UHGV virus genome: UHGV-0185283
Origin: a virus
DNA: 21,276 nt
Direction: 5' to 3' (one strand)
A model generated the notes under the pieces. That model was not told the origin of the DNA and did not search any database. It saw only the letters and a program-made list of their open reading frames with translations. A program made the translations under genes and the position numbers. Below, piece by piece: positions 313 through 20,957 of the stretch. Positions within the stretch are counted from its first letter, which is position 1, and every line of letters starts with the position of its first letter.

Positions 313-642
313 ATGAGCAATCTGAATCCATGCATGACGTGTGGTGCCTGTTGTGCATTTTTCCGCGTCTCTTTTTACTGGGCCGAAGCCGACGATGCTG
401 GCGGTACCATTCCCGCCAGGCTTACTGAACAAATATCCCCTTTTCACCGATGCATGAGCGGTACTAATCAGAAAAATCCCCGATGTATTGCCCTTGCAGG
501 AACACCGGGCAAAAATGCCTGCTGCACGATATATAAAAATCGATCGTCCACATGCAGAGAATTCGCCATGTCTGGTGAGAACGGAGAAGTCAATGAGGCT
601 TGCAATCGTGCAAGAGCTAAATACGGGCTAACACCGTTATAA
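313..642 (+). CDS. ykgJ: YkgJ-like small Cys-rich (CxxCxxCC) putative zinc/iron-chelating protein; host chromosomal gene
   Basis: 109-aa ORF with N-terminal CxxCxxCC cluster ([10 protein letters not shown]) and further Cys pairs; recalled as matching E. coli YkgJ in length and sequence; intrinsic terminator immediately downstream. Confidence 0.7.
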
Positions 643-890: not shown

Positions 891-1505
891 TTATCTATTT
901 GAGCCTAAAGGGATCTCAGGGTCTGGCTCATGGGTAATTCTGTTTCGTAAATCTCTGCGAATAATTTCAATAGACCAGAACCAGACTAAATGTCCAAAAA
1001 TTTCAGAGACATTCTCATACCACGGAAGATCAAAGAGAGGTGGCGTAAGTCCCATGAGAGGGAATGAAATCATATGAACAAAAAGTTGTGCTAAAGCACC
1101 TGCCAGTAAGCCCTGCCAAAGTTTAATTTTCGGAAATACTTCGGCGACCACACAGTAACCAACGGCAAAAACTATCGAAAAGATTATGTGCGTTACACCA
1201 ACCCAGTTAAAGACATGCCCGGCGAAGGTATAAACAGCCGAATTTGGATCTGTCAGTCCCAACCAGTCTCGAAGAAAAATGTACGGAGGATTGAGAAAGT
1301 TACGGGAGCAATCAATTTGGCCTGCAGCCCTGATTAATGATTCCGGACCACACGCTGCATTAAACATATCAACCGGACTACGTGGTGGCAATGGAACTTC
1401 TGCCCCCCACTTAACAAATGCGGAAACAACGCCAGCAATCAGCCCAATGAATGCAGCAAGACCATAACGTCTGCGGTTTGGTGGAGTTTGTTCAAATATA
1501 TTCAT
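891..1505 (-). CDS. yagU: YagU-like inner-membrane protein (DUF1440 family); host chromosomal gene
   Basis: 204-aa ORF with several hydrophobic segments; N-terminus [25 protein letters not shown] recalled as E. coli YagU; convergent with ykgJ as in E. coli. Confidence 0.7.
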
Positions 1506-2396: not shown

Positions 2397-3521
2397 CTAC
2401 TTTAGTCGCAATTTTTCGATCAGCTTTTTCCCTATGATGACGCTTGGTTTCTCTATATAATTAAACATGATTAGTGAAAGAAAGTATGCAGACATAAGAT
2501 CAGTTAGGAACTTTGCCCATCCTGGATTTTTAGGATACCACGGTATATCCGAACCATATTTTGCAAAAAATAATCCGACAGGAATATGTATTAGATAAAT
2601 AGAGTAAGACAGATCACCAAGATGGCAAAGAAATCTAGGAAAACCGATATCATGCCGACTCTCTATAATAACAAGGCCAACAAAAAGAAATGAAGCAATC
2701 ATCCCCCCATTCATAACACCGTGACCTGACTTATACTGAGTCAACAATGCTGACAATGAATAGATGACAAAAGAAACAGCAATTATTCCAATTGTATTTT
2801 TTTTGTAACTATCTTTTCTTATTGCAATATACGCTTCTGCAAGCAAAACACCTATAATAAAATCAAACACTATAGGGTTGATTATAAATTTAGCGTGGTC
2901 TATTAATCTTTTTGTTTCACCTACTGAAACAGTATAGGGGTCAAGAGTTATTACTCCAGAGAAAATCAACTGCCCAAAAATAACAACAGATGTTATGGTA
3001 ACTACAGTTAAAAGTGCTCTATACTTATGACTTACCATTAGACACATCATAAATACAAAGTAAAAATAAACCTCATATATCAATGTCCAGGAGGGATACA
3101 ATAACCCATAGCCATAAAACGGGCCTTGCTGACTCATATCAGAAGTTATAAACAGGTATGATTTCAAGATATCTTTCCAGTCAAACCATGTTTGAGGGAA
3201 TGACATTATTGAGAAGTCAAAAAATACACCCATCAGCAATAAAGATAATGCAATTAAATATACTGGGTAAATCCTGAACAATCTTTTTATAAAGAAAGCA
3301 ATAGGCGTATTTTCAATTCTATTTTTAGTTGAATAAACAATGATAAATCCACTAATTATAAAAAATAAATCTACGCCAAAAGCGCCATTCATGAAGAGGA
3401 GATCACCAAGATTTGCCTGAGCATACACTCCATTCAGGCTGGTACGGTAGTGGAAACCAACCACCATAAGAGCCGCAATGCCTCGCATAACCTGAATGGA
3501 GTTTAGTTTTAGTTGAGCCAT
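2397..3521 (-). CDS. Integral-membrane acyltransferase, acyltransferase-3 (OafA/Oac-like) family; putative O-antigen acetyltransferase for lysogenic conversion
   Basis: 374-aa polytopic hydrophobic protein; N-terminus MAQLKLNSIQVMRGIAALMVVGFHY is typical of the acyltransferase-3 family; no C-terminal SGNH domain; very AT-rich; sits tailspike-proximal at the prophage end as oac does in Sf6. Confidence 0.75.
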   Translation of the reverse strand: MAQLKLNSIQVMRGIAALMVVGFHYRTSLNGVYAQANLGDLLFMNGAFGVDLFFIISGFIIVYSTKNRIENTPIAFFIKRLFRIYPVYLIALSLLLMGVFFDFSIMSFPQTWFDWKDILKSYLFITSDMSQQGPFYGYGLLYPSWTLIYEVYFYFVFMMCLMVSHKYRALLTVVTITSVVIFGQLIFSGVITLDPYTVSVGETKRLIDHAKFIINPIVFDFIIGVLLAEAYIAIRKDSYKKNTIGIIAVSFVIYSLSALLTQYKSGHGVMNGGMIASFLFVGLVIIESRHDIGFPRFLCHLGDLSYSIYLIHIPVGLFFAKYGSDIPWYPKNPGWAKFLTDLMSAYFLSLIMFNYIEKPSVIIGKKLIEKLRLK

Positions 3522-3623: not shown

Positions 3624-5933
3624 CTAAATAGCAGCAATTATAAAGCATAATAATTCATCATACCTGATGCTATATCTGCTTCCAGATGCAATATATGGTT
3701 GTTTGACTGTTAATGTTCCATGTTCATCTCTTTCTACAATCTCAGGAGATTCATCCCATTCATCATAACAAAACAGCGCGTAAGAATGAGGGTCTAGATT
3801 TTCCGATAAGAATGCATCTCTTACATCTTGAGCAATCACACCAATATGAATCCTTGCATTATTTCCTTTTTTTAACACAGAGTCATTTAACTTATATTTT
3901 TTTAGTAACCGTTTTATTTTTAAAGCCACACGTTTCTCAGCATCATCAAGCCACTCCTCCTGTTGCTTTAAGCATTTGTCAGATGAAACAATAGGTGATA
4001 CGGTGAAATAACTTGAATTTATTCTCCTGCTTGCAGCTCCAAAATCCTGTGTGCCATCAGTACCGGGTGATAAATAACCGCGAGTAGTCATCTCCCATGA
4101 CTGACCGAGTACGTCGGAGTTATTGATCTTCAGGTTATTAAAAGAAAGATTGGCAGATGCACCTGCGCCATCATAAGCAATAAGATTCGAACTTATCGAT
4201 GCAGCTATAAAGTTAACCCCGGTATCATAAGAGAATCTGTATTCCGGCCCAGATGCAAGCTGCGGATTACCTGCCCTTAACTCATGAAAGTTTTCCCTGA
4301 TACCGAACGCGGTGATGTTCGACTCTAACCCACCTGTTATTGCACGTTCTGACAATTTCGTTGGAGCATACGATCCTCCTAACGTTATAAGATCATTATC
4401 TGATTCAAACACGGAATAACAAGCTGCTTGATATACATGTTGAGTACCAGCATTAGGTTTGTAGTTGGTGTTGTTTTTTATCACACCACCTTCAATTACA
4501 GTAGCCTGTATAAACTTCCCTGCCTTTAAACCATAGCAGATGTTGTTTTCTATTTTTAACCCTGAAATACCAGATACACATATGAAATGGTTTGCTGGAT
4601 TTGTGGCCACGTTATTTGTGATAGTAACAATAGGTACGTATCCGCGCCCCTCATAGTCTTTGTTATACAGCAAAGAATACGGAGTACCAAGGCAATCATT
4701 GACTTTATTACTATCAATAAGCCGGTTTCCGCCACCGGTACCAAGACCAAAAAGAATACCACTATTCACACTTCCATCATGTGTTGTGTTAATTATATCT
4801 CCCGCAGATGATTCAACCCCATTATAGGAAACGTTAGTATAACAATCACGGATTACTATATTAAACATTGCGCTATAAACGTTCATGTTTAGCGCATTAA
4901 ATCGTGCGTTAGTACTGGTTACGCTATCGAATAACGCATCACGGTTGTTGGCGTTACGAGAGAACCAGTATACTTGCTCACCTTCAAATCCGTCTATGTG
5001 AACGCCTTTAACTGTAAAGCGAGAGCAGTTCCATGCAGCTATACCCTTCCGGTTTACCTGGTTAACCAGATCGCTATTGTTTGGAGTTCCTGACCAGTAT
5101 CCTTGTATTCTACCATTACCAGTTACTGAGTAGCAGAATCCATCGTTGCCTGCGAATACAACACCGCCGAACTCGATAAATCCTCGTTCATCCCCAGACT
5201 GCGTTCCAGCGGCAGTGTTAGGCCATCCTGATTTTGCAGGTGCAGGCACCATTCCAGTGCATTCAACCAATCCGTTAACAATCCAATGGACGTTATTTAC
5301 TCCGTATGCAGTGAATCGACCATTGGATTTAATGACTCCACCATTCTCTACGAGAATAATCCTGTCTCCCGGGATTGTGATATCAACATTACCGATGATT
5401 TCAATCGTTGTTCCAGATGGAATTCTTACACTACCTGAATTCACCGCAGCCTGAAATGTTTGTGCGTCGGTGTATCCTGGCTCTCTGAACTCTTCGATAG
5501 TTCTTATTGTAGTGTGTAGGAATTGGGTTAAATCGTCATAACCAGGGTATCCTATATAATCTGCCCCATTGCCAGAAGAAAGTCTCCGTTCTAACTGATC
5601 AGGGTCATACTTCAGCACGTTTGGGAAATAGAACTGCTGCACCCCATAAGCATCGTAAACAGCCATCGAATGACCTTGCACGGTAACGAATTTGGCAATC
5701 TGTCCGTTATATACAGGATATCCAGCAGCGTTAATGATGATTGGCTGCGAAACAGGAACGTGAGAGCCGTCTTCGTTCTCCACATAAACCTGAATCTGGT
5801 TTTCAGGATTTACAGGGTCAGTATCAATTTTACCGATATAAATTTTGCCATTGGCTACAGCTTTAAAAGAACGCGCCATAGTGAAGAGTTGCGAAGGCAT
5901 GCTTACCACAACATTTGCGGTGATATCTGACAT
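3624..5933 (-). CDS. Tailspike protein: P22 gp9-like N-terminal head-binding domain, divergent central beta-helix-type receptor-binding domain, C-terminal intramolecular-chaperone (peptidase S74-like) domain
   Basis: Residues 1-100 from [13 protein letters not shown]...NVLKYDPDQ are near-identical to the remembered P22 tailspike N-terminus. The central region is Gly/Asn/Ser/Thr-rich and does not resemble P22 endorhamnosidase. The C-terminal ~120 aa ([20 protein letters not shown]...[14 protein letters not shown]) resemble autocleaving chaperone domains. Start placed at the internal Met matching P22, with GGAG 7 nt upstream. Confidence 0.85.
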
Positions 5934-6054
5934 TTCATTGCTCCAGACGAATGATATGATGCAACCATGATGTGATTGCATACCGAAATGGTACTATTGA
6001 GTATTTATCCAGTAGGTTACGATGCCATTCCACCCAACTGGTGAGGCATCAAGG

Positions 6055-6315
6055 ATGTACAGCAAATACGACGAGGCGCAGTTTCACTTGAGACTTCCGC
6101 ATGAACTCCACGCGAAAATTAAGCAGCGTGCGAAGATGAATAACAGGTCGCTGAACTCAGAGATAATTGCAGCGATTGAAGAATCATTGGCTAAACAAAG
6201 CTCTGCATCAGTTTACATTGACGATGCAGAGCGTATGGCAGAACAACAATCTGATATGGTTAAGAAAATTGTCTTTGATACGCTCAAAGAGCTATATAAA
6301 AAAGACAGCAGCTAA
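6055..6315 (+). CDS. mnt: Mnt-like ribbon-helix-helix (Arc/MetJ family) repressor
   Basis: C-terminal two-thirds aligns with remembered P22 Mnt (NNRSLNSEII..., AERMAEQQSDMVKKIVFDTLKELYKK versus AERLADEQSELVKKMVFDTLKDLYKK); the N-terminal beta-strand residues differ. Divergent from the tailspike; start chosen at MYSKYDE with GAGG upstream (ORF-track start 6022 is an alternative). Confidence 0.7.
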   Translation: MYSKYDEAQFHLRLPHELHAKIKQRAKMNNRSLNSEIIAAIEESLAKQSSASVYIDDAERMAEQQSDMVKKIVFDTLKELYKKDSS

Positions 6316-6335
6316 CCATCAGTTACGGAGGATTT

Positions 6336-6413
6336 ATGCAAAGAGATATGCTGAATATTGCGTTCTACATATTTGGTTTTTGCACGTTCCTGGTGTTTGC
6401 GAAGCTATTCTGA
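6336..6413 (+). CDS. Hypothetical 25-aa hydrophobic peptide downstream of mnt
   Basis: GGAGG 4 nt upstream of ATG; MQRDMLNIAFYIFGFCTFLVFAKLF has one predicted transmembrane helix; its 3' end overlaps the gp16-like gene on the opposite strand. Below the 60-aa ORF-track cutoff. Confidence 0.3.
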   Translation: MQRDMLNIAFYIFGFCTFLVFAKLF

Positions 6414-8402
6414 CAACGCATCAGACTTGGCACCCTGAGTCAGGGCGTTAATGGCCTTTTGCGCCTGCTGCATGGCTTTCTCAAACGCTGTTGATCCGCG
6501 TGGGGTGTTTGCCATTCGGAGCATTGCATTTCTGAATGGTTCGCTCTCATAGGCGCGAGTAAGAAGTCCGTAGCTTACTGCTGCGCCAGTTGTCGCCGGG
6601 TTCATTGCCGTCCCATACCCGATAATGAACGGGATGGTTTGCTGCCCTGTTGGTGTTGTTACTGCCGCTTTTGCTGCCTGCTGAGTGGACTGAAGGTAAT
6701 TTTTCAATCCTTTCAGATAAGCAGCGTCCTGCCCCTTAAATGTGATGCCAGTCTGGTTTTGCAGGATGTTAAGCTGCCGAAGGAACTGGTCAGGGGATCC
6801 GCCAGATTTCTCCATCGCCTTTCCAATGATGCCATTGCGCATTTGCACCCTGCCAACACGACCAACTGAGTTATACAGCGTCTTAATTTCCGATTTGTTC
6901 TTGCTGAATAGCATGTTGTTGACAACTTCCGGCGTCAGGTCGCCTTTCATGAGAACATTCTTCAGCCTGGTATTCTTTAGTTTCGCCGCTTCGTCAGCGT
7001 AGACGGCATTGGCCTGCTGATATTTACGGAGAGTATCGTTGCCAAGATTCTGACCAATGGCACCATTGATATCGTCGGTCATCGCCTTGTAAACGCGCTG
7101 AATGGCAGCATCGGAACGGTTTGGTAACACTGGTCGCTCACCCTTCACGTCCATTCTGAACTGACTGCGCAGGTCGCTTAATTGCTTCAAATCCAGATTT
7201 ACCGGACCATCAGGGCCAGCATTGCGAACAAGCTCATCACGATATGACTGAAGTTTTGAAATTGTCTCGTTATCAGCCACCTTACCAAGCTTCTGCAGGT
7301 TAGATATTTCTGTATCAATCTGCTGAATTGCTCGCGCAGGCTGAATGTTTACTCCAGCCATAGCATTCTGAACCTGCTCCAGTCGATTACCGGCGGCACG
7401 ACGAATTCCTGATGTTTTCGCTTTAAGGCTGTCAATAACAACCGCTGGATCATACTCCCCGAATTTATCAGCAAATCTCTGCACCAACTGGCTTCTCGCT
7501 TCCTGTTGCGTTGCTCTCATTCCGCTTGTTCCAGCCAGAGGGATATTTTCTGCTGTAGTCTGCGCCATTTTTCCGACGCGGGAAGTAGGTTGTAACAGGT
7601 CTGTGGTGTGCAGAGGCACTCCTTCACGCTCTGCAAATCTGATAGCCTGCTGCGCTTCTGGCGCAATAGCACCACGAACGCCACGATAAGCAGCACCTAA
7701 TCCACGTCCAGCAGCGTTAATAGCGCCGCCTGCCAGAACTCCAACACCTAAATCGGTAGCGAGTGCTTCCGCATCATCTTTCGCACTATTTGCAGCAAGT
7801 GATCCAACTGCGTTTTCTGCTAGAAGGCGAGTTGCCCCATGAGCAATTCGACCAGCAAGTGTTGGTGCCTGTACCGCCGCTCTCTCAACGCCAGCAGGAG
7901 TGAGGTAAGGCAATGCTTCAGCAAATACCCTTCCCTCTGTCGTTTGTGGAGTCAGCGCACCTTGCTGAAGGCCAAAGTCCTGCTCTAATCCCTGCGTTGT
8001 TACTCGTGGTGCTGGTTGATATGTACCATCGCCAATGCCGAGTTTACCGCCAGCCCAAGCCGCCGCGCTTGTTACAGCATCGGCAACTGATGCAGGTATG
8101 TTTGCCACGTTCACGCCAGCCTGCACCAGTCCGCGACCAGTTTCTTTCACGGCTTCACCAAGATCAGACATAAATCCACTTTGCTGTGGTTGTTGCTGTG
8201 CTACTGGTTGTTGTGTCTCCACTGGATGCACAGATGGCAATGGATAGGCAGCATAGAAAGCTTGCTTAGCCTGCTCTGCATTTTCTCCGGCTTTCGGGGC
8301 CACGACTTCATTGAAGTATTGCTCCTGAGCCTGCGCTTTTTGTTCTGGTGCTAACGCCTGATACTGTGGAGAGGCGATAACATCTTTCCATGCTTTAGCC
8401 AT
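6405..8402 (-). CDS. Ejection (E) protein, P22 gp16-like
   Basis: 665-aa Ala/Gly/Gln-rich protein in the last position of the gp7-gp20-gp16 block; start overlaps the upstream stop (ATGA). Confidence 0.65.
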   Translation of the reverse strand: MAKAWKDVIASPQYQALAPEQKAQAQEQYFNEVVAPKAGENAEQAKQAFYAAYPLPSVHPVETQQPVAQQQPQQSGFMSDLGEAVKETGRGLVQAGVNVANIPASVADAVTSAAAWAGGKLGIGDGTYQPAPRVTTQGLEQDFGLQQGALTPQTTEGRVFAEALPYLTPAGVERAAVQAPTLAGRIAHGATRLLAENAVGSLAANSAKDDAEALATDLGVGVLAGGAINAAGRGLGAAYRGVRGAIAPEAQQAIRFAEREGVPLHTTDLLQPTSRVGKMAQTTAENIPLAGTSGMRATQQEARSQLVQRFADKFGEYDPAVVIDSLKAKTSGIRRAAGNRLEQVQNAMAGVNIQPARAIQQIDTEISNLQKLGKVADNETISKLQSYRDELVRNAGPDGPVNLDLKQLSDLRSQFRMDVKGERPVLPNRSDAAIQRVYKAMTDDINGAIGQNLGNDTLRKYQQANAVYADEAAKLKNTRLKNVLMKGDLTPEVVNNMLFSKNKSEIKTLYNSVGRVGRVQMRNGIIGKAMEKSGGSPDQFLRQLNILQNQTGITFKGQDAAYLKGLKNYLQSTQQAAKAAVTTPTGQQTIPFIIGYGTAMNPATTGAAVSYGLLTRAYESEPFRNAMLRMANTPRGSTAFEKAMQQAQKAINALTQGAKSDALSE

Positions 8403-20435: not shown

Positions 20436-20957
20436 TCAGCACGCGATATCGAGAGTCAACTGCAGTTGCTCGCGCCAGTACTCAACATTTGCTTCAATAA
20501 CCGGCTTATCCCATCGCCAGCGAGCCATCTCTCTTGCCCCATTGCTGGCTTTTGATTTCCGGTCATCGCGAATGCGACATGCTTGCTCATATTTCTGCTG
20601 CTCAGTCAGTTCACCGCGAAGCAGACTATCAATGTGCAGGTCGCACCACACAGCAAAACGAGCATCACACCAACGGGCAAATGCAACTGAAAGTTTTGGA
20701 TGTAGCCACGTACCACCACCCCTGTCCTTTCGTGCCTTGCTGGTTTTTACATACCTCGATTGTGAGGGATGTAAAATTTGAGATTCTTTCCCGGTCAACG
20801 CTTCGTCTAAAGCACGAACGTATTCAAGCGTTTCTGCCAAACGCATCCAGTTATCAATGCGTTTCCCAAATCTCTCAGCAACACCTGTGACGTTGATCCA
20901 ACCATCAGTGTTGAAACTGACAATTTCACCTTTGTAATTAAGTGGCACGATATTCAT
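20436..20957 (-). CDS. KilA-N domain-containing protein
   Basis: 173 aa; N-terminal ~100 residues (MNIVPLNYKGEIVSFNTDGWINVTGVAERFGKRIDNWMRL...GGTWLHPKLSVAFARWCDARFAVWCDLHIDSL) look like a KilA-N/APSES-type DNA-binding domain; lies between the lysis genes and terminase. Confidence 0.6.
   Translation of the reverse strand: MNIVPLNYKGEIVSFNTDGWINVTGVAERFGKRIDNWMRLAETLEYVRALDEALTGKESQILHPSQSRYVKTSKARKDRGGGTWLHPKLSVAFARWCDARFAVWCDLHIDSLLRGELTEQQKYEQACRIRDDRKSKASNGAREMARWRWDKPVIEANVEYWREQLQLTLDIAC

Follow-up and report, generated by a model that had tools for sequence, protein, structure and literature searches.

A predicted operator and a distinct specificity class for an orphan Mnt-family protein beside the tailspike gene of a P22-like prophage

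A stretch of 21,276 nucleotides from the viral genome UHGV-0185283 (the whole stretch is called the window in the following) represents the late region of a P22-like (Lederbergvirus) prophage, which runs on the minus strand from the genes for the small and large terminase and the portal to those for a gp16-like protein and the tailspike. Between the last two lies a gene for an 86 amino acid protein related to the P22 repressor Mnt (mnt, 6055-6315, plus strand), and neither arc nor ant is found with it. The comparisons reported here indicate that this Mnt is real and probably a functional orphan, and that it belongs to a specificity class not described previously. Its likely operator is at 5979-5995, directly in front of its own promoter. 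The region can be read as a minimal "ant moron", which would hold only a repressor with the DNA-reading residues Q-F-H-L-R and a small membrane peptide, pep25. The output that would remain to the repressor is the regulation of its own mnt-pep25 transcript, a reading to which we give a probability of about 0.5.

An orphan mnt gene without arc and ant

The mnt product matches the Pfam families Arc (PF03869, 7.5e-15) over residues 7-49, the ribbon-helix-helix DNA-binding domain, and Repressor_Mnt (PF11423, 3.4e-14) over residues 57-82, the predicted C-terminal coiled-coil helix for tetramerization. Its identity to P22 Mnt is 49% across 80 amino acids, and in the PDB it matches 1MNT (3.4e-19), the N-terminal domain of Mnt, as well as 1QEY (1.7e-8), the tetramerization domain. 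These matches bear out a sequence-only reading of the same DNA, which had taken the protein for an orphan Mnt homologue. The start codon at 6055 is the correct one; a form of 97 amino acids beginning at ATG 6022 was rejected, as relatives carry an in-frame upstream stop and the RefSeq records of E. coli use the short start. An identity as type II toxin-antitoxin antitoxin was rejected as well: the Pfam matches to HicB and FitA-like families are weaker and overlap the same ribbon-helix-helix region. No cognate toxin gene was found beside mnt, where the sole downstream open reading frame (ORF) encodes a hydrophobic peptide of 25 amino acids, which is without a family and is also found without mnt.

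The gene lies in the variable segment that separates gene 16 from the tailspike gene and is read toward gene 16, which is the placement of the Mnt family. It is divergent from the tailspike gene (start at 5933, minus strand), as had been stated from the sequence alone. The absence of arc and ant that was claimed earlier holds too: P22 Arc, Ant, SieA and Orf59a gave no tblastn match anywhere in the 21-kb window, and arc and ant are absent from the complete genome of the near-identical phage Sf101 as well. A complete immI region comprises mnt, arc, sar, ant and the overlapping divergent promoters Pant and Pmnt, of which only mnt and Pmnt are left here. A maintenance repressor in the sense of P22 represses Pant and hence ant, whereas neither ant nor arc is present in the window or in Sf101, and the window shows no Pant-like promoter; the window protein is a structural homologue of Mnt and not a maintenance repressor of this kind.

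The β-strand that reads the DNA consists of Q9-F10-H11-L12-R13 in the window protein (context KYDEAQFHLR), compared to ARDDPHFNFR in P22 Mnt. The difference in reading residues noticed in the sequence-only reading is thus real.

The likely operator abuts the mnt promoter

The likely Mnt operator is the 17-mer CATACCGA-A-ATGGTACT at 5979-5995 (no strand), the positional homologue of P22 Omnt. Within it lies the imperfect palindrome TACCGAAATGGTA (5981-5993, centre 5987). The predicted 17-mer stops 1 nt before the TTG of the Pmnt -35 element, in the same register as the annotated P22 operator, AGGTCCAC-C-GTGGACCT. Its centre is about 66-68 nt upstream of the mnt start codon, a P22-like layout, and the tailspike start is 45 nt away on the other side. 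Pmnt itself (5997-6023, plus strand) was assigned by homology, a position weight matrix (PWM) scan and tabulation of spacers, with TTGAGT at 5997-6002 as -35 and TACGAT at 6018-6023 as -10. The spacer of 15 bp in the window lineage is atypical; it has 17 bp in JEP4, ST64T and P22. A 2-bp deletion, shortening the spacer from 17 to 15 bp, is present in most E. coli/Shigella copies (about 78 of 90 loci), and the JEP4-like, Buttiauxella and Serratia copies keep 17 bp.

In an alignment of 12 diverse mnt upstream regions (P22, epsilon34, ST64T, ST160, 720R6, Brookers, a Klebsiella phage, Pluralibacter and QFHLR-type loci) the sole invariant blocks are ATTG and TAnnAT, which are the -35 and -10 of the annotated P22 Pmnt, and each of the 12 regions holds a 17-bp palindrome ending one base before the TTG. 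Operators of the Mnt family are 17 bp long, two-fold symmetric and abut the -35 of Pmnt; the site at 5979-5995 agrees with this by position and covariation, and binding of Mnt to it is predicted.

The motif TACCN5GGTA occurs once in the window, where 0.08 occurrences are expected, and it is also single in the 38.7-kb genome of Sf101 and in each related locus. No second copy turned up in the remainder of the window, in the rest of the complete Sf101 genome or, for JEP4, HS, Serratia, Citrobacter and Buttiauxella, in the vicinity of their KilA/Rha-type genes. All loci of the QFHLR type in Escherichia, Buttiauxella and Serratia keep the site RTACCNAAAYGGTAC while the flanks diverge. The Buttiauxella operator is a perfect 6+3+6 palindrome, GTACCAAAATGGTAC, and in contig L090 the operator is perfect too, by way of a symmetric double substitution.

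In Buttiauxella (L015, about 2905-2945) and Serratia (L016, about 690-730) a second promoter-like array in the sense of mnt was seen, TTGATA/TTGATT-17-TATTGT, whose spacer is exactly filled by the operator. Such a layout, which is not present in the window, would give classic negative autoregulation.

Reading strand, operator and neighborhood define specificity classes

Covariation was surveyed in about 180 Mnt loci, and the gene neighborhood was scored where the flank was long enough. Reading strand, operator and neighborhood co-segregate without exception among the loci with sufficient flank. Proteins with HFNFR (n = 24) go with (A/G)GGTCCAC-N-GTGGACCT and are always accompanied by arc-ant, and the best leftward promoter of these loci scores 14.8-16.3 bits. 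The QFNLR proteins (n = 64) go with nnGACCAC-N-GTGGTCTT, an AGACCAC-type operator with a free central base; they are always orphan with the tailspike directly beyond, and the leftward promoter scores 4.1-8.3 bits. The QFHLR proteins (n about 90), to which the window protein belongs, go with RTACCNAAAYGGTAC, that is RTACC-N5-GGTAY, and are likewise always orphan with the tailspike directly beyond and a leftward promoter at background. A Klebsiella protein with QINIR, which is found with arc-ant, has GGTATAAC-C-GTTATACC. A different DNA-reading head therefore comes with a different operator, and what the sequence-only reading had deduced from the altered residues is supported, with an RTACC-type operator here and a GGTCCAC-type operator in P22. 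As far as this comparison goes, the orphans are distinct old lineages and not recent deletions from a P22-type region.

The N-terminal domain shows a dN/dS of 0.05-0.11 versus its relatives, and toward JEP4, HS and Serratia dS is about 1.7-2.2, which is near saturation. Despite this the operator is still identical at 14 of 15 positions in these three. Of 92 QFHLR-type loci, 90 have an mnt frame that stays open for 80 codons or more; E. coli 8GC (L010), which is annotated as frameshifted, is among these 90. Among 5426 complete E. coli genomes, at least 141 contain the region with a coverage of 80% or more, and mnt-only modules are common in P22-like prophages of E. coli, Shigella and Salmonella. 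Although the only known target has been lost, gene, operator and promoter are still under selection in both orphan classes.

In several QFHLR-type loci (JEP4, L005 2770-5252; E. coli HS, L012 5228-7211; also L016, L017 and L021) the moron contains antirepressor-like genes of the KilA/Rha/P22AR type. They are on the late strand, convergent with mnt and beside a divergent gene for a helix-turn-helix (C2-like) repressor, and no Mnt operator is near them.

Loss of Pant and proposed autoregulation

In the P22-type arc-ant loci Pant scores 14.8-16.3 bits in the PWM scan versus 2.4-9.3 in the orphans, with the 95th percentile of the background at 8.7. The homologous -10 of the orphans is without its critical final T (TATATT has become TAAATA, TGTATC or TGCATC), and no TTGACA is left at the -35. 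In the window a consensus scan found no promoter directed at the tailspike on the minus strand, and the PWM scan gave nothing above background. In the orphans Pant is lost and Pmnt is kept. That the regulatory target is not evident, as the sequence-only reading had remarked, still stands. Pant, the tailspike-directed promoter under Mnt repression in P22, is decayed in the window.

In the mechanism that we propose, an Mnt tetramer would bind the single 17-bp operator at 5979-5995, with the half-sites RTACC 9 bp apart. As with Omnt in P22, the operator directly adjoins the -35 of the promoter of mnt itself. Comparison shows the loss of the ancestral target, a strong Pant whose transcription covers arc-ant and continues into the tailspike gene. 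The output that would remain is the autoregulation of a rightward mnt-pep25 transcript expressed from the prophage; binding immediately upstream of the tailspike leader would be incidental. Lineages that have long been without Pant preserve the register of the operator to the Pmnt -35 to the exact base, and this speaks for a contact with RNA polymerase at Pmnt. Autoregulation is further favored because mnt usually heads a rightward unit, here with pep25 and its strong Shine-Dalgarno sequence; as a first gene it is commonly followed by variable cargo (orf59a, a lipoprotein, hypothetical proteins or pep25). The sign of the control could be either way. For ribbon-helix-helix proteins negative control is the rule, and positive control would fit a -35 that is weak, a spacer of 15 bp and a dimer close to the promoter with its centre near -41.

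Several points weigh against this reading. The operator of the window is imperfect, with four of five core positions paired. In the window lineage Pmnt scores about 5.4, which is at background level, and together with the 15-bp spacer this makes expression of mnt uncertain. Disrupted copies occur, namely the frameshift of 8GC, a stop codon in Citrobacter and the truncation in L057. The peptide pep25 occurs in Sf6, which has no mnt, and so does not need Mnt. Long retention is poorly explained by autoregulation without a further target, and every regulatory statement made here is drawn from sequence.

Other roles for the repressor were weighed against autoregulation. Mnt might still repress a leftward promoter directed at the tailspike gene, a remnant of Pant starting at the operator, so that the tailspike would be silent in the lysogen. 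In favor of this, the operator is homologous to Omnt, by which the start of Pant is covered in P22; every orphan locus of both classes has its tailspike start immediately past the operator; and the transcripts from Pant of P22 are thought to influence tailspike expression (Villafane et al., 2008; PMC2629481). However, the best leftward sigma-70 scores of the orphans are within the background range, the final T of the -10 and the TTGACA of the -35 are lost, and no minus-strand promoter came from the consensus scan, which makes this reading unlikely. A part in lytic growth, where the Mnt-operator complex and convergent transcription from Pmnt would tune late read-through from gene 16 into the tailspike gene, we hold to be very unlikely. 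For this it can be said that late transcription has to pass the operator on its way from the gp16 gene to the tailspike gene and that a role of the moron and its repressors in tailspike levels has been suggested (PMC2629481), but no terminator-like element was found in 5800-6600 and Sf6 copes without Mnt. Gene and site might also be decaying, functionless remnants of a former immI region, an idea that was raised as one possibility for phage L (PMC8022706) and would agree with the loss of Pant, arc and ant, the 15-bp Pmnt spacer, the imperfect palindrome and the existence of pseudogenes. Decay is quite improbable in view of the low dN/dS at nearly saturated synonymous sites, the frames that have stayed open, an operator, -35 and -10 conserved across genera unlike the neighboring sequence, a palindrome that each of the two orphan classes retains in class-specific and often perfect form, and the number of E. 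coli genomes with the region.

Retention without a target in cis would be accounted for if the orphan Mnt acted in trans, silencing the ant promoter of superinfecting or co-resident phages with the same operator and so guarding the prophage from antirepressor-driven induction. The Mnt of a prophage silences ant of an incoming P22 in this way. Against this, no arc- or ant-linked locus with a QFHLR or QFNLR operator is present among the about 180 Mnt loci, where operator classes segregate fully with architecture. A scan of IMG/VR for the exact operator found 55-56 sites beside a QFHLR mnt and 64 others, judged to be at chance level; near these 64 there is neither a protein with the QFHLR motif nor a homologue of P22 Arc or Ant. 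A function in trans is on this evidence rather improbable. A broader proposal is that the orphan Mnt-operator pairs (QFHLR/RTACC and QFNLR/AGACCAC) are old, independently co-evolving classes that were kept after the loss of ant for a function not yet recognized and are not leftovers. This function could for example be a self-activating prophage "on" switch for the 25 amino acid membrane peptide or a gate on tailspike expression. We regard this proposal as doubtful; if it were true, the natural series of reading strands and operators would supply a recognition code for ribbon-helix-helix proteins.

The palindrome before the tailspike gene is a leader stem-loop

As candidate operator the sequence-only reading had put forward the palindrome ATGCAACCATGATGTGATTGCAT in the divergent intergenic region at 5958-5980; its actual position is 5959-5981, one base further on. 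It lies inside the intergenic region and has perfect arms of 6 bp, but an equally good repeat arises in 26% of shuffles of the 121-nt region, a chance probability of 0.26. Relatives whose reading residues are identical do not conserve it: JEP4, E. coli HS, 8GC, FACU, Buttiauxella and Serratia, all of the QFHLR type, have unrelated sequence at this position and keep the adjacent RTACCNAAAYGGTAC. These relatives have instead a hairpin of other sequence about 24-29 nt upstream of the tailspike start, for example CCGUAGC-CAU-GCUGCGG or CCGCAGC-UCU-GCUGUGG. A hairpin also precedes gene 9 in P22 (L004, 5161-5182), where it is 1.4 kb away from Omnt, and one is found in the leader of Sf6, which is without mnt (L003, about 2765-2790); both are of other sequence and at equal distance from the tailspike start. 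That the palindrome is the Mnt operator is thus extremely improbable.

Transcribed in the sense of the tailspike gene (minus strand), the same bases form the stem-loop AUGCAAUCA-CAUCA-UGGUUGCAU in the 5' leader of the tailspike mRNA, with 9 bp including one G.U pair (5959-5981), about 25-30 nt before the tailspike start. The fold energy of the single sequence is unremarkable (z = -0.76), and support for the hairpin comes from comparison alone. When G.U pairs are allowed, a stem of at least 6 bp is present in 16 of 20 leader families (80%) in the tailspike sense, versus 30% in the antisense and 35% in shuffled sequences, and in some contigs the U.G pair of the window-family stem is swapped for U-A or C-G. 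Where G.U pairs are used, the stem forms in the tailspike sense only, and this strand asymmetry points to an RNA element. The comparison thus identifies the palindrome as a stem-loop of the tailspike leader that is unrelated to Mnt and is conserved across P22-like phages as a shape and not as a sequence. Because a U-tract is missing it is not a canonical terminator; roles in mRNA stability, processing or translation are possibilities.

A small hydrophobic peptide encoded downstream of mnt

The conserved, unannotated ORF pep25 (6336-6413, plus strand), predicted by translation, encodes a hydrophobic peptide of 25 residues (MQRDMLNIAFYIFGFCTFLVFAKLF). It follows mnt after 20 nt, is preceded by a GGAGG Shine-Dalgarno sequence and borders directly on the gp16 gene at the 3' end of the latter. 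The frame is open in all loci in which extraction at a fixed offset is in register; in the other two a 1-nt shift just before the ATG brought the extraction out of frame. Changes at third positions are in excess (92 versus 45 and 38), and no Pfam or PHROG family was matched. The ORF is present in Sf6 on the opposite strand (L003, about 2830-2907), and in 720R6 away from mnt; its coordinates in L006 are 3821-3895. In the window pep25 is probably co-transcribed with mnt, and the prophage may express it as a membrane protein of small size.

Relation to known mnt-only morons

The arrangement described here is already known in the literature, so that the window adds a member and not a new kind of system. 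The region was named "ant moron" by Villafane et al. (2008; PMC2629481), who list ST64T, ST104 and Para1 with only mnt and an unknown gene, and phage L is likewise mnt-only (Zaworski et al., 2020; PMC8022706). The action of P22 Mnt at Pmnt is treated in PMC2724298 and PMC11016777. In a literature search no paper was found that gives an operator or a function to an orphan Mnt.

The window shares with P22 Mnt and Omnt the ribbon-helix-helix fold with a C-terminal tetramerization helix and the gene position and orientation between genes 16 and 9. In contrast to P22 it has no arc, sar, ant or sieA, Pant has decayed, and the Pmnt spacer is 15 bp. The reading residues are Q-F-H-L-R versus H-F-N-F-R, the N-terminal arm is 3 residues longer in the window protein, and the half-sites are RTACC versus GGTCCAC. 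P22 Arc has the same fold and the same length and register of arm and strand (M-K-G-M-S-K-M-P-Q9-F-N-L-R13 in Arc, M-Y-S-K-Y-D-E-A-Q9-F-H-L-R13 in the window protein), but it lacks a tetramerization helix, is located across the promoter region from mnt and binds an operator of 21 bp that lies between the two Pant elements, -35 and -10. An Arc-type operator is missing in the window, where "CAGTAG" is the only relic left.

The morons of the Salmonella phages ST64T, ST104, L, SE1 and ST160 resemble the window in an orphan mnt divergent from the tailspike gene, with operator and Pmnt kept, Pant lost and a small downstream ORF. They differ in their QFNLR strand and their operator AGACCAC-N-GTGGTCT, always a near-perfect palindrome, in carrying orf59a or orf62 in place of pep25, and in their host, which is Salmonella for the ST64T type and Escherichia or Shigella for the window type. 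The published phages Sf101 and IME10 share gene, operator and tailspike leader with the window at 96-99% identity; in Sf101 mnt is annotated from the long start, the gp16 variant is different and pep25 is missing. The IME10 copy of mnt has no annotation.

In the records NC_002371 (P22 mnt), NC_027398 (Sf101 gp14) and NC_011976 (epsilon34 mnt) and in PHROG 795, Mnt is named "partition protein ATPase". This label is a propagated mis-annotation of a ribbon-helix-helix repressor.

The value of the present analysis is in part corrective, as the candidate operator is moved to 5979-5995, the flagged palindrome is reassigned to a conserved stem-loop of the tailspike leader and a misnaming in the databases is exposed. 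Seeing the mnt-only modules as two long-lived specificity classes also makes the published question of remnant or new function testable, and the matched natural Mnt heads and operators are a resource for work on protein-DNA recognition.

Further features of the window and of related loci

The tailspike gene (3624-5933, minus strand; tblastn and Pfam) encodes 769 amino acids with a P22-type head-binding domain and a C-terminal Peptidase_S74 chaperone. Residues 1-113 of P22 gp9 align to 5933-5595 in tblastn, which sets the start at 5933, and residues 1-113 of the tailspike match Pfam Head_binding (5.2e-67). On the other side of the moron, the gene for the gp16-like DNA-ejection protein (6405-8402, minus strand) is the last of the late operon; tblastn with P22 gp16 gave 34% identity over 582 amino acids (E = 1e-75), and the RefSeq names of the E. 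coli matches agree.

A further palindrome, GATGCC-N18-GGCATC with an inner CACC/GGTG pair (6021-6050, no strand), was taken from the inverted-repeat list. It overlaps the Pmnt -10 and the Shine-Dalgarno sequence of mnt, and its fold has z = -2.0 on the plus strand and -1.7 on the minus strand. The outer arms GATGCC/GGCATC are identical in ST64T and 720R6, and in the Proteus phage Brookers the complementary arms TTTGTC/GACAAA stand in their place. The pairing includes U.G on the mnt-sense strand in P22 and G.U on the opposite strand in 720R6, so that the two favor different strands; the MAFFT alignment is too poor for the counting of pairs.

A metagenome phage lineage that carries a 16-mer of the operator was set aside as coincidental, as it is unrelated and has no Mnt-like protein nearby. 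In this lineage (L233, 2560-2660 and 3075-3175; also L193, L198, L222, L261 and L270) a regulatory cassette of about 70 nt is duplicated at a distance of 515 bp. Within it, CATACCGAAACGGTAC is embedded in an inverted repeat of greater length, and the cassette is found before two small genes upstream of the terminase gene.

Elsewhere in the window, a KilA-N domain protein of 173 amino acids is encoded at 20436-20957 (minus strand) between the lysis region and the small terminase gene, with no Mnt-type operator close by; its equivalent in Sf101 is annotated as Rha-like. Downstream of the tailspike gene and on the same strand, 2397-3521 (minus strand) encodes an Acyl_transf_3 protein, possibly an O-antigen acetyltransferase, in an orientation unlike that of oac in Sf6 and Sf101, where it is opposite to the tailspike. 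The DUF1440 and CxxCxxCC proteins encoded at 891-1505 (minus strand) and 313-642 (plus strand), respectively, are probably host proteins, and the end of the prophage should therefore fall between about 1500 and 2400.

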